DNA from: Escherichia phage vB_Eco_Jura
DNA: 64,000 bases
Strand: one strand, 5' to 3'
Sequence record: LR999871
The position numbers and the translations under genes are program-made. The notes beneath the pieces are model-generated. The model saw nothing but the letters and a program-made list of their open reading frames with translations, ran no database searches and was not told where the DNA came from. Position 1 is the stretch's first letter. Each line of letters starts with the position of its first letter. Shown here piece after piece: positions 1,468-4,582 of the stretch.

Positions 1468-2438
1468 AAATCACGAACAATCATGACGTGTCCTTGCCAT
1501 TAGCTGTCTGGCTTTTGCATGACGAGTATGATTACGTGAAGGATAAAAAGTATCTTTCTGTGACTACCCTGCTTAAGCCAATTAAGCACATTGTCATGAA
1601 GCATCGTGTAGACCTTTCTGTAGAAAGCATGGACATCATGGATTTGGTGTCCACTTCTATGGGTACAGGCTTACATGATTCTATTGAGAAGGCATGGCAT
1701 AACGGACACCACAATGCATTACGCAAGTTAGGGTATCCTGAGCGTGTCGTTCAGAATGTTGTCATCAACCCTACCCCTGAGCAGATTGCATCAAATCCAA
1801 ACTTAATTCCTGTATGGATAGAACAACGAGCAACTAAAAAGATTGCTGGTTGGACTATTGGGGGCAAGTTCGACATCGTTACTGAAGGTCTTCTTCAAGA
1901 TGTAAAATCCACCTCCACTTACACATGGGTAAAGGGTGGACGTGATGAAGAACATAAACTTCAGGGGTCAATGTATCGTTGGTTGCATGACGACAAGATT
2001 ACCGAAGATGTGATTCGTATTAACTACATCTTCACTGACTGGATGAAAGCATTAGCTACATCTCAAGAAAACTATCCAAAGCATCGTGTGCTGCATAAAG
2101 ACATTCCATTGATGTCTTATGAAGCGACTGAAGAATGGATTAAAGCCAAGCTGGCTCTCATTGATAAGTACTGGGATGCTCCTGAAAGCGAGATTCCAGA
2201 ATGTACTGATGAAGAGTTATGGCGTTCTGACCCAGTGTTTAAATACTTTGCTGACCCAGAGAAGGCAAAGCAACCTGGTGCTCGTTCTACCAAAAACTTC
2301 CCTACTCTCTTTGAGGCTCGGAAGTTCATGGCAGAGAAGGGCAAAGGCACTATTCTTCATGTTCCTGGTGAACCTAAACGATGCAACTATTGCTCAATTT
2401 TTAACATCTGCGAACAAAGAAAGAGATATTTCCCATGA
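1464..2438 (+). CDS. PD-(D/E)xK nuclease with C-terminal Cys cluster (RecB/Cas4-like exonuclease)
   Basis: ATGA overlap with upstream stop. Motifs in order GKFDIV (Asp), LQDVK (D/E-x-K), QGSMY (Q-x3-Y), then C-x2-C-x5-C at the C-terminus (CNYCSIFNIC) with a further upstream Cys (PECTDEE). Confidence 0.6.
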   Translation: MKITNNHDVSLPLAVWLLHDEYDYVKDKKYLSVTTLLKPIKHIVMKHRVDLSVESMDIMDLVSTSMGTGLHDSIEKAWHNGHHNALRKLGYPERVVQNVVINPTPEQIASNPNLIPVWIEQRATKKIAGWTIGGKFDIVTEGLLQDVKSTSTYTWVKGGRDEEHKLQGSMYRWLHDDKITEDVIRINYIFTDWMKALATSQENYPKHRVLHKDIPLMSYEATEEWIKAKLALIDKYWDAPESEIPECTDEELWRSDPVFKYFADPEKAKQPGARSTKNFPTLFEARKFMAEKGKGTILHVPGEPKRCNYCSIFNICEQRKRYFP

Positions 2439-4582
2439 TTGACCTGACCGGAGTCTCACATCATCCGGCGATTGAAGAAATCGTTGATGTGTTATGTAAC
2501 AAGACGCAAAACACTGACCGTGGTTTTTTCCGTGTAGAAGTGGCCTATTTCCTTGCGAAAATGGCTTCATGTATGGGTGCAACTATCATCACTAAAGACC
2601 GTGGTGAAATTCCAGTAAACATCTATGCAGTGGCTCTTGCTACTTCAGGCTTCGGTAAAGGCCATTCGGTCAACATTGTTGAAGACGGTTTTATGGCTGG
2701 CTTTAAGAAGCGGTTTATGGAAGACACCATGCCTGCTTTAGCAGAAGACCGTCTGTGGAAAATTGCTAACGAACGTTCTGCTCGTAATGCTACTGACCAG
2801 AAGGAGGAGTTTGACAAGGTGGAAGCTGAATACAGACGTACGGGTGCTTATCCATTTACGTTTGACTCAGGTACGCCTCCTGCTGTGAAACAGTTACGTC
2901 ATAAACTCTTATTAGCTGGATGTGGTGCTATTAACTTACAGATTGATGAGATTGGTTCAAACCTTCTCGCTAATGCTGATGTATTAACTGTGTTCCTTGA
3001 GTTGTACGACCAAGGCAAGATTAAACAGAAACTTACTAAGAATACTGCTGAAAGTATTCGTAGTGAGGAAGTTGATGGTAAAACTCCAGCTAACCTTCTT
3101 CTGTTTGGTACACCGAGCAAACTTCTCAATGGGAGCCAGACTGAGGAACTCTTCTATGACTTCCTTGATACTGGCTATTCTCGTCGTTGTCTGTTTGCTG
3201 TAGGTCAGGCAGATAAACGTGCATATCTGAGCCAGAGTGCTGAAGAAATCTATCGTAATCTGATTAAGCAGGATAACAATGCTGTTGTGAATAAGTGGGC
3301 TAACCACTTTCATAGCCTTGCAGATGCATCCAAGTTTGGTTGGAAAATGACAGTTGAAGATGATGTTGGTATTGCACTAATCGACTACAAGATTCAGTGT
3401 GAAAAGCAAGCAGCAGCTTTAGCTGACCATGAAGAGATTCGTAAAGCAGAACTGGAACATCGCTATTTTAAGGCACTGAAATTGGCAGGTGCATTTGCAT
3501 TTGTTGATAACAGTATCATGGTAGAGATGGAACACCTGAAGCAAGCAATTCTTCTGGTAGAAGAGTCTGGTGTTGCATTCCAGACTATCCTCAATCGTGA
3601 AAAAGCCTACGTTAAATTAGCCAAGTATATTGCATCTGTTGGTACTGAAGTTACTCATGCAGATTTGCTTGAGGCTTTGCCATTCTATAAGAGTGGGAAT
3701 GCTGCACGTAATGAGATGATGACTTTAGCTACTGCATGGGGCTATAAGCAGCACATCATCATTAAGAAGACATACAACGAAGGTATTGAGTTCTTCCGTG
3801 GTGAGACACTGAAAGAGACTGATACTAACGAAATGATTGTTTCTTATGGTGAGAACTTTGCTTATGACTATATTGCAGAGAAAGTTCCATTTGACCAGTT
3901 ACATGTACTGACCCAGCAAGCAGGTTATCACTGGGCTAACCACCATTTCCGTCGAGGACATCGTGCTGAAGAGAATGCTATTGCTGGCTTCAATATGATT
4001 GTCATTGATGTGGATGGTACGTGTAGTTTGGACGTGTGCCATGAATTGATGAAAGAATACCGATTCATGACCTATACGACTAAACGCCATACTGATGAAG
4101 AAAACCGTTTCCGGTTAATTATTCCAATGAACTATCAGCTTGAACTTGATGGTGCTGAGTACAAAGAGTTCATGGATAACGTTATGGCATGGCTCCCATT
4201 TAAAACGGACGAGTCTGCTAATCAACGAGCCAAGAAATGGGAATCATGTGCTAAGGGTACGTATTACTACAATATGGATGCTCCCCTGCTAGACGTAAGA
4301 GATTTCATTCCTAGAACCAGTAAGAATGAGGCATTCCAGCAAGGGATGCAGAAGGTTCAGAATCTGGATAATCTCGAACGTTGGTTTGCCCAACGAATTG
4401 CTACAGGCAATCGTAATAACCACATGATTAAGTATGCTCTGGCTCTGGTAGATAGTGGTATAGGCTTCAATGAAGTTAAACAACGTGTGCATGAGTTCAA
4501 TAAGAAACTCAGCAATCCCCTGTCTGCTGACGAACTGGATTCCACTGTAATGATTACTGTGGCTAAACGTTACACATCTTAA
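2435..4582 (+). CDS. large replication-module protein (715 aa); possible primase-like, unresolved
   Basis: ATGA overlap with upstream gene. Only weak motif evidence: MIVIDVDG (h-h-h-D-h-D, as in primase-polymerase catalytic strands); no canonical Walker A. Confidence 0.55.
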   Translation: MIDLTGVSHHPAIEEIVDVLCNKTQNTDRGFFRVEVAYFLAKMASCMGATIITKDRGEIPVNIYAVALATSGFGKGHSVNIVEDGFMAGFKKRFMEDTMPALAEDRLWKIANERSARNATDQKEEFDKVEAEYRRTGAYPFTFDSGTPPAVKQLRHKLLLAGCGAINLQIDEIGSNLLANADVLTVFLELYDQGKIKQKLTKNTAESIRSEEVDGKTPANLLLFGTPSKLLNGSQTEELFYDFLDTGYSRRCLFAVGQADKRAYLSQSAEEIYRNLIKQDNNAVVNKWANHFHSLADASKFGWKMTVEDDVGIALIDYKIQCEKQAAALADHEEIRKAELEHRYFKALKLAGAFAFVDNSIMVEMEHLKQAILLVEESGVAFQTILNREKAYVKLAKYIASVGTEVTHADLLEALPFYKSGNAARNEMMTLATAWGYKQHIIIKKTYNEGIEFFRGETLKETDTNEMIVSYGENFAYDYIAEKVPFDQLHVLTQQAGYHWANHHFRRGHRAEENAIAGFNMIVIDVDGTCSLDVCHELMKEYRFMTYTTKRHTDEENRFRLIIPMNYQLELDGAEYKEFMDNVMAWLPFKTDESANQRAKKWESCAKGTYYYNMDAPLLDVRDFIPRTSKNEAFQQGMQKVQNLDNLERWFAQRIATGNRNNHMIKYALALVDSGIGFNEVKQRVHEFNKKLSNPLSADELDSTVMITVAKRYTS

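Follow-up and report, generated by a model that had tools for sequence, protein, structure and literature searches.

In Escherichia phage vB_Eco_Jura (sequence record LR999871), a stretch of 64,000 nucleotides was analyzed, and this whole stretch is referred to below as the window. The gene under study lies at 2435..4582 on the plus strand. The list of open reading frames (ORFs) and the translation gave 715 amino acids plus a stop codon with an ATG start, and the ATGA at 2435-2438 couples it to a PD-(D/E)XK-type nuclease ORF at 1464..2438; on these points an earlier model-made reading of the DNA letters (the sequence-only reading) was accurate. The gene product is gp43 (dns) of coliphage N4, probably a bifunctional replication protein in which an MCM-like helicase is joined to an archaeo-eukaryotic primase (AEP). 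The gene and its junction were located as follows.

2435..4582 (+): complete gene of the N4 gp43 (dns) homologue, a probable helicase-primase fusion (translation, nucleotide and protein identity, PHROG 2135)
2435..2438 (+): start/stop overlap, ATGA, with the upstream nuclease gene, the gp42 homologue (direct reading of the sequence)
1464..2438 (+): gp42 homologue, PD-(D/E)XK-type exonuclease, the upstream partner (Pfam PDDEXK_1 and N4 RefSeq label)

The DNA of 2435..4582 was 99.5% identical to phage PMBT57 and 99.6% identical to AL25, with unchanged coordinates, and 98.6% identical to positions 27314-29461 of Escherichia phage N4. At the protein level, 713/715 residues (99.7%) were identical to N4 gp43 (YP_950521.1). 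The two substitutions relative to N4, A205T and T306A, both lie outside the conserved motifs. The length, the neighboring genes and the ATGA overlap with gp42 are also equal, and the two are essentially one protein.

PHROG 2135 ('DNA primase') covered residues 1-714 at profile positions 1-711/713 with 1205 bits. Together with a PriCT_1 match above its gathering score and the identity to N4 gp43, this overturned the statement of the sequence-only reading that no confident family could be assigned. Among 1.84 billion cluster representatives, an exhaustive HMMER search returned 877 relatives at E<=1e-3; most have about 715 residues and align along their whole length down to 29% identity. The C-terminal third was found by tblastn in 469 phage genome records, nearly all from N4-like phages, and the NCBIfam search with gp43 gave nothing useful. 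The gene encodes one of the 17 proteins kept throughout the proposed family Schitoviridae (PMC7650795). In public records it is labeled 'DNA primase', 'DNS protein' (G7C-like phages) or 'bifunctional DNA primase/helicase'.

Phage DUF3987 proteins have been described as superfamily 6 (SF6) helicases, distant relatives of MCM with a C-terminal winged helix, and N4 dns as a helicase of DUF3987/SF6 carrying an AEP at its C-terminal side, assigned to DUF3987 through a profile-profile search (Kazlauskas 2016, PMC4889955). The databases and the literature already cover this gene with its helicase-primase architecture and its essential role in N4 DNA replication, and both the MCM-like (DUF3987) motor and the inverted domain order are already published. 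The proposal that this protein could be a new replication initiator does not hold; it is N4 gp43/dns, with an architecture published in 2016.

Predicted helicase module in the N-terminal two-thirds

The N-terminal part of gp43 contained the following features, where the helices and strands are those of AlphaFold2 (AF2) models.

2435..2575 (+): two-helix region, residues 1-47, ahead of the ATPase core (helices 11-24 and 29-46 in the AF2 model, predicted local distance difference test (pLDDT) >90)
2576..3592 (+): MCM-like AAA+ ATPase module, residues ~48-386, alpha/beta core and helical lid, in the region aligned with Pfam DUF3987
2639..2668 (+): deviant Walker A / P-loop, A69-T-S-G-F-G-K75-G76-H-S78, between strand 64-69 and helix 75-86
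2930..2950 (+): Walker B, I166-N-L-Q-I-D171-E172, at the end of strand 166-171
3173..3187 (+): putative arginine finger, G247-Y-S-R250-R251, at the end of helix 235-251 and just before strand 252-257
3602..3814 (+): winged helix-turn-helix domain, residues ~390-460

Neither the single protein sequence nor a shallow or a deep profile had a significant match in the PDB. Therefore, the fold was tested by structure prediction. A first full-length AF2 model, built from an alignment of 29 close homologues, had low confidence in the N-terminal 460 residues (mean pLDDT 57.5). A second AF2 model, restricted to residues 1-465 and built from 132 sequences (50%-cluster representatives, reaching 26% identity), had a mean pLDDT of 96.2 and a predicted template modeling score of 0.92. 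The N-terminal module displayed an AAA+ alpha/beta core with a lid, for which the closest fold was that of MCM proteins. Pfam DUF3987 (PF13148) aligned with residues 39-376 at profile positions 11-352/364 (25.4 bits, E 9.9e-6). The same family was matched in 19 of 68 diverse relatives at E<=0.01, with a best E of 8.9e-12.

The catalytic residues were compared across the 132 relatives. A regular-expression check found no canonical [AG]x4GK[ST] motif in gp43, so that the sequence-only reading was correct about the missing motif; it had overlooked a real P-loop, deviant at its final position alone, in which 132/132 relatives have K75, 130 have S71 and 131 have G72, and a Walker B with the core LQIDE at residues 168-172. 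At residue 76, 91 relatives have Gly, 21 Asn, 11 Thr, 5 Ser and 4 Asp. Thus, about 85% of these family representatives carry GK-G/N instead of GK-S/T, and position 78 is Ser or Thr in 83%. No clean pattern of compensation was found in the relatives between a Ser/Thr at residue 76 and Ser78. As the lysine is invariant and residue 76 is mostly Gly or Asn across relatives, the missing canonical Walker A is a family-wide variant of a genuine P-loop. A GKG P-loop is also used by adenylate kinases. Another possible P-loop, the 'GKT' at residues 215-217, was rejected, because K216 lacks conservation in the deep alignment and the loop that holds this segment comes before strand beta-4.

In Walker B, E172 was present in 132/132 relatives and D171 in 129/132. 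G247, R250 and R251 were each invariant (132/132), and by position the G247-Y-S-R250-R251 segment is a putative arginine finger, comparable to the MCM 'SRFD' before strand beta-5. R343 is near-invariant and precedes a lid helix; alignment of this helix with the Mcm7 lid was weak and not significant (E 0.49). We infer the sensor residues of the module from their position. The conserved residues in the alignment and the model fit an active, ring-forming AAA+ protein. Sequence and fold comparison showed that residues ~48-386 are an MCM-clade AAA+ ATPase in which the P-loop Lys75, the Walker B residues Asp171/Glu172 and Arg250/Arg251 are conserved, and that residues ~390-460 are a winged helix.

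Compared with the MCM replicative helicases of archaea and eukaryotes (SF6), the identity of gp43 was only 10-17%. It shares with the MCM clade the Walker B acidic pair and the putative arginine finger, whereas the canonical GxxxxGK[ST] Walker A of that clade is absent and the lysine is invariant. The N-terminal OB/zinc domain of MCM is also absent, and unlike MCM, gp43 has a primase fused to it and a helical insert (residues 88-135) that follows the P-loop helix.

Four longer homologues of gp43 (1001-1049 residues) carried intein-like insertions of about 300 residues, which begin with Cys and end with Asn, followed by Cys or Ser. In P0153 and P0267, the insertion is at Walker A, corresponding to residues 70/71 in the window (~nt 2642-2647). 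P0122 is interrupted directly after the Walker B 'IDE' (residues 172/173, ~nt 2948-2953), and P0181 inside a conserved ELYD motif (residues 189/190, ~nt 2999-3004). A Pfam intein match was obtained in P0122 only and was weak (Intein_splicing). Inteins characteristically home to the catalytic sites of essential replication ATPases, and insertions at Walker A, Walker B and ELYD therefore give independent support for the helicase module.

Probable primase module in the C-terminal third

The C-terminal part of gp43 contained a catalytic domain and a helical domain with the following features.

3827..4354 (+): AEP (PrimPol-type) catalytic domain, residues ~465-640
3995..4018 (+): AEP motif I, M-I-V-I-D525-V-D527-G, residues 521-528, at the end of strand 519-527 in the model
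4073..4090 (+): putative AEP motif II region, Y-T-T549-K550-R-H552 (position and order)
4199..4213 (+): putative AEP motif III region, F-K-T-D592-E (D592 conserved in >=90%)
4388..4549 (+): PriCT-1 helical domain, residues 652-705 (Pfam PriCT_1)

PriCT_1 (PF08708) was matched at residues 652-705, C-terminal to the AEP domain, with 38.3 bits against a cut-off of 21.1 (E 9.9e-10), and was also matched in 53/68 relatives. PHROG primase and primase-helicase profiles aligned with residues 505-706, chiefly through the N-terminal part of the profiles; these were phrog_695 (E 2.8e-7), phrog_9765 (E 1.1e-6) and phrog_256 (E 2.1e-5), and phrog_17236 (E 3.3e-4) was matched near the end of its profile.

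The MIVIDVDG segment, which the sequence-only reading had placed about two-thirds along the protein, does lie at 73% of its length, and its DxD at residues 525-527 is the sole DxD in gp43. In an alignment of 68 sequences reaching 27% identity, D525 and D527 were each conserved in at least 90%. The same level was reached by T549, K550 and the downstream R560, and H552 was conserved in about 70%. TTK550RH552 is followed by TD592, the order expected for AEP motifs II and III; motif II is a putative assignment from its position and this order, and motif III is likewise putative. The AEP catalytic fold was found in gp43, with the S-2L AEP domain as the best AEP fold match. Sequence and fold comparison showed that residues ~465-640 are an AEP-type primase domain in which Asp525/Asp527 and Asp592 are conserved, and that residues 652-705 are a PriCT-1 domain. 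The AEP of gp43 is divergent and recognizable only through profile or fold comparison, and the fold evidence for it is moderate. The sequence-only reading had guessed at a divergent primase-polymerase, which describes the C-terminal third and misses the AAA+ ATPase and winged helix of the N-terminal two-thirds.

The fusion resembles pRN1 ORF904, cyanophage S-2L PrimPol, NrS-1 polymerase and BFK20 gp43 in having a DxD AEP, a PriCT-type domain and a ring helicase. In contrast to these AEP primase-helicase fusions, the order is inverted in N4 gp43, with the primase at the C-terminus, an arrangement called 'non-typical' (Kazlauskas 2016, PMC4889955). The N4 gp43 helicase is MCM-like, whereas the helicases of the other AEP fusions belong to SF3 (D5-like) or SF4 (RepA/DnaB-like).

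AgaPH, a PriCT-DUF3987 protein from a mobile element that carries pAgo, was shown to be an oligomeric helicase that depends on ATP/dATP and runs 5'-3' (PMC11724360, 2025), and its unwinding needs Walker A as well as Walker B (PMC11724360). In DUF3987 helicases such as AgaPH, as in gp43, an AAA+ ATPase occurs together with AEP primases and PriCT domains. However, the primase of AgaPH is a separate protein and its PriCT precedes the helicase, whereas helicase, winged helix-turn-helix, AEP and PriCT-1 follow each other in one chain in gp43. The GKG of the gp43 Walker A also differs from the GK[ST] of DUF3987 helicases such as AgaPH.

At a distant locus in a JGI metagenome (L004:1797-3946; 3300060844, contig Ga0589654_001807), the helicase part (486 residues) and the primase part (235 residues) were in two ORFs that overlap by 19 nt, followed by an AAA_24 gene. 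The primase ORF was 47% identical to residues 486-713 of the window protein. The two ORFs could reflect a natural separation of the domains at their boundary or a frameshift error, as one metagenomic contig alone shows them; the arrangement suggests that the fusion may not be required. A second representative, the 'helicase-only' P0247, was considered as a natural split and rejected, since its sequence is cut by the contig end.

Proposed action at the fork and alternative explanations

If gp43 acts as a helicase-primase, its AAA+ modules would form a ring in which the arginine finger acts across subunits. The ring would translocate on single-stranded DNA with ATP and unwind the N4 duplex at the fork, and the tethered AEP/PriCT-1 module would lay short primers on the exposed strand. 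These primers would be extended by the N4 DNA polymerase (gp39) while the N4 SSB (gp45) coats the template, and the co-translated gp42 exonuclease and host functions would process primers and ends. The winged helix may aid DNA or origin binding. The polarity of the helicase is not deducible from sequence, because MCM runs 3'-5' and AgaPH, the only assayed DUF3987 helicase, runs 5'-3'.

Several observations weigh against the helicase-primase reading. The DUF3987 score of gp43 is 1.6 bits below the 27-bit gathering threshold. No Pfam AEP catalytic-domain model had a match in gp43 or the 68 relatives at E<=0.01. The Walker A is without a Ser/Thr after the lysine (GKG), the residue which binds Mg2+ in most P-loop NTPases. 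The MCM clade of AAA+ also includes the non-helicases BchI, RavA and BrxL. No biochemical assay of the primase or helicase activity of gp43 itself was found in the literature. gp37, the N4 SF1 Dda/RecD-like helicase, which is encoded outside the window and matches AAA_30 and UvrD_C_2, could contribute unwinding in N4. Finally, in a Foldseek search with the first full-length model, the hits to MCM and PrimPol fell short of significance (E >= 0.15).

Given an MCM-clade motor that has GKG in place of the Mg-binding Ser/Thr, as in about 70% of the family, and a primase C-terminal to the ring, the helicase-primase of the N4 family might be mechanistically distinct from all characterized primase-helicases, which we consider unlikely. 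For example, it could have a polarity or strand choice unlike MCM, or hold the primase on the opposite ring face from the other fusions; nothing points positively to either.

The main alternative is that gp43 is a primase combined with an origin-binding initiator or loader. The AAA+ and winged helix modules would then recognize and melt an origin or remodel DNA in the manner of ORC/Cdc6/DnaA, the AEP would lay the first primer, and the fork would be unwound by gp37 or by strand-displacement synthesis. Its probability is low, because the matches of gp43 to MCM are much stronger than those to initiators.

It is very improbable that gp43 has one function only, as a divergent primase-polymerase, or is a replication initiator of a wholly new kind, without an NTPase and with 460 N-terminal residues that form a novel accessory part. 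The absence of a canonical GK[ST] Walker A and of any sequence relative in the PDB would suit such a protein. However, the high-confidence model is an AAA+ fold with a P-loop, in which the lysine, the Walker B DE and the Arg pair are conserved; DUF3987 is matched across the family, and the published assignment (PMC4889955) agrees with a helicase-primase. A non-replicative role, as a repair PrimPol or an anti-defense ATPase merely located in the replication block, is also very improbable. AEP PrimPols can act in repair (PMC11724360), but N4 DNA replication is reported to require dns (Guinta 1986, cited in PMC4889955), which is a core gene across the whole Schitoviridae family and keeps its synteny with the polymerase, exonuclease and SSB genes.

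On the helicase-primase reading, gp43 would be the core replicative motor of the Schitoviridae, a large family whose phages are used in phage therapy research. The assignment has little weight as a discovery, and its residual value is practical: many gp43 records give just 'DNA primase' or 'hypothetical protein' as the label, which passes over the two-thirds with the helicase.

Neighboring genes and tRNA cluster

The replication module consists of polymerase gp39, gp40-41, exonuclease gp42, gp43, the AAA_24/Sak4-like gp44 and SSB gp45. The gene order gp42 exonuclease, gp43, gp44 (AAA_24) and gp45 SSB in the window is that of the N4 and PMBT57 annotations, and it was also seen at the distant metagenomic locus L004. 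The overlap of gp42 and gp43 in the N4 annotation is identical in kind (ATGA). For the gp42 homologue, the Pfam PDDEXK_1 match (E 5.5e-4) was under the curated cut-off, and the N4 RefSeq name is 'exonuclease'. Its start differs between records, at 1464 in the N4 RefSeq equivalent and at 1560 in PMBT57 (coding sequence 1560-2438). The longer form, starting at 1464, has an ATGA-type overlap with the preceding gene at 859..1467.

The window is colinear with N4 without gaps, and its start falls inside the gene of the 859-residue DNA polymerase (N4 gp39). The sequence-only reading had called gp43 the largest gene of the replication block, which is true inside the window only, as the polymerase cut by the window start is larger. 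The PMBT57 and AL25 records also start inside this polymerase gene, and in the window bases 3 to 521 are open in frame 3. The 95-residue 'DNA polymerase I' coding sequence of PMBT57 (234-521) is the tail of the gene split by the arbitrary start of that record.

Four tRNA genes were observed at 7700-8378 (+) of the window, for Asn-GTT, Ser-TGA, Thr-TGT and Pro-TGG. The cluster sits in a stretch of about 1.5 kb between the gp47 and gp48 homologues, which is without listed features in the retrieved tables of the N4 RefSeq and PMBT57 records.

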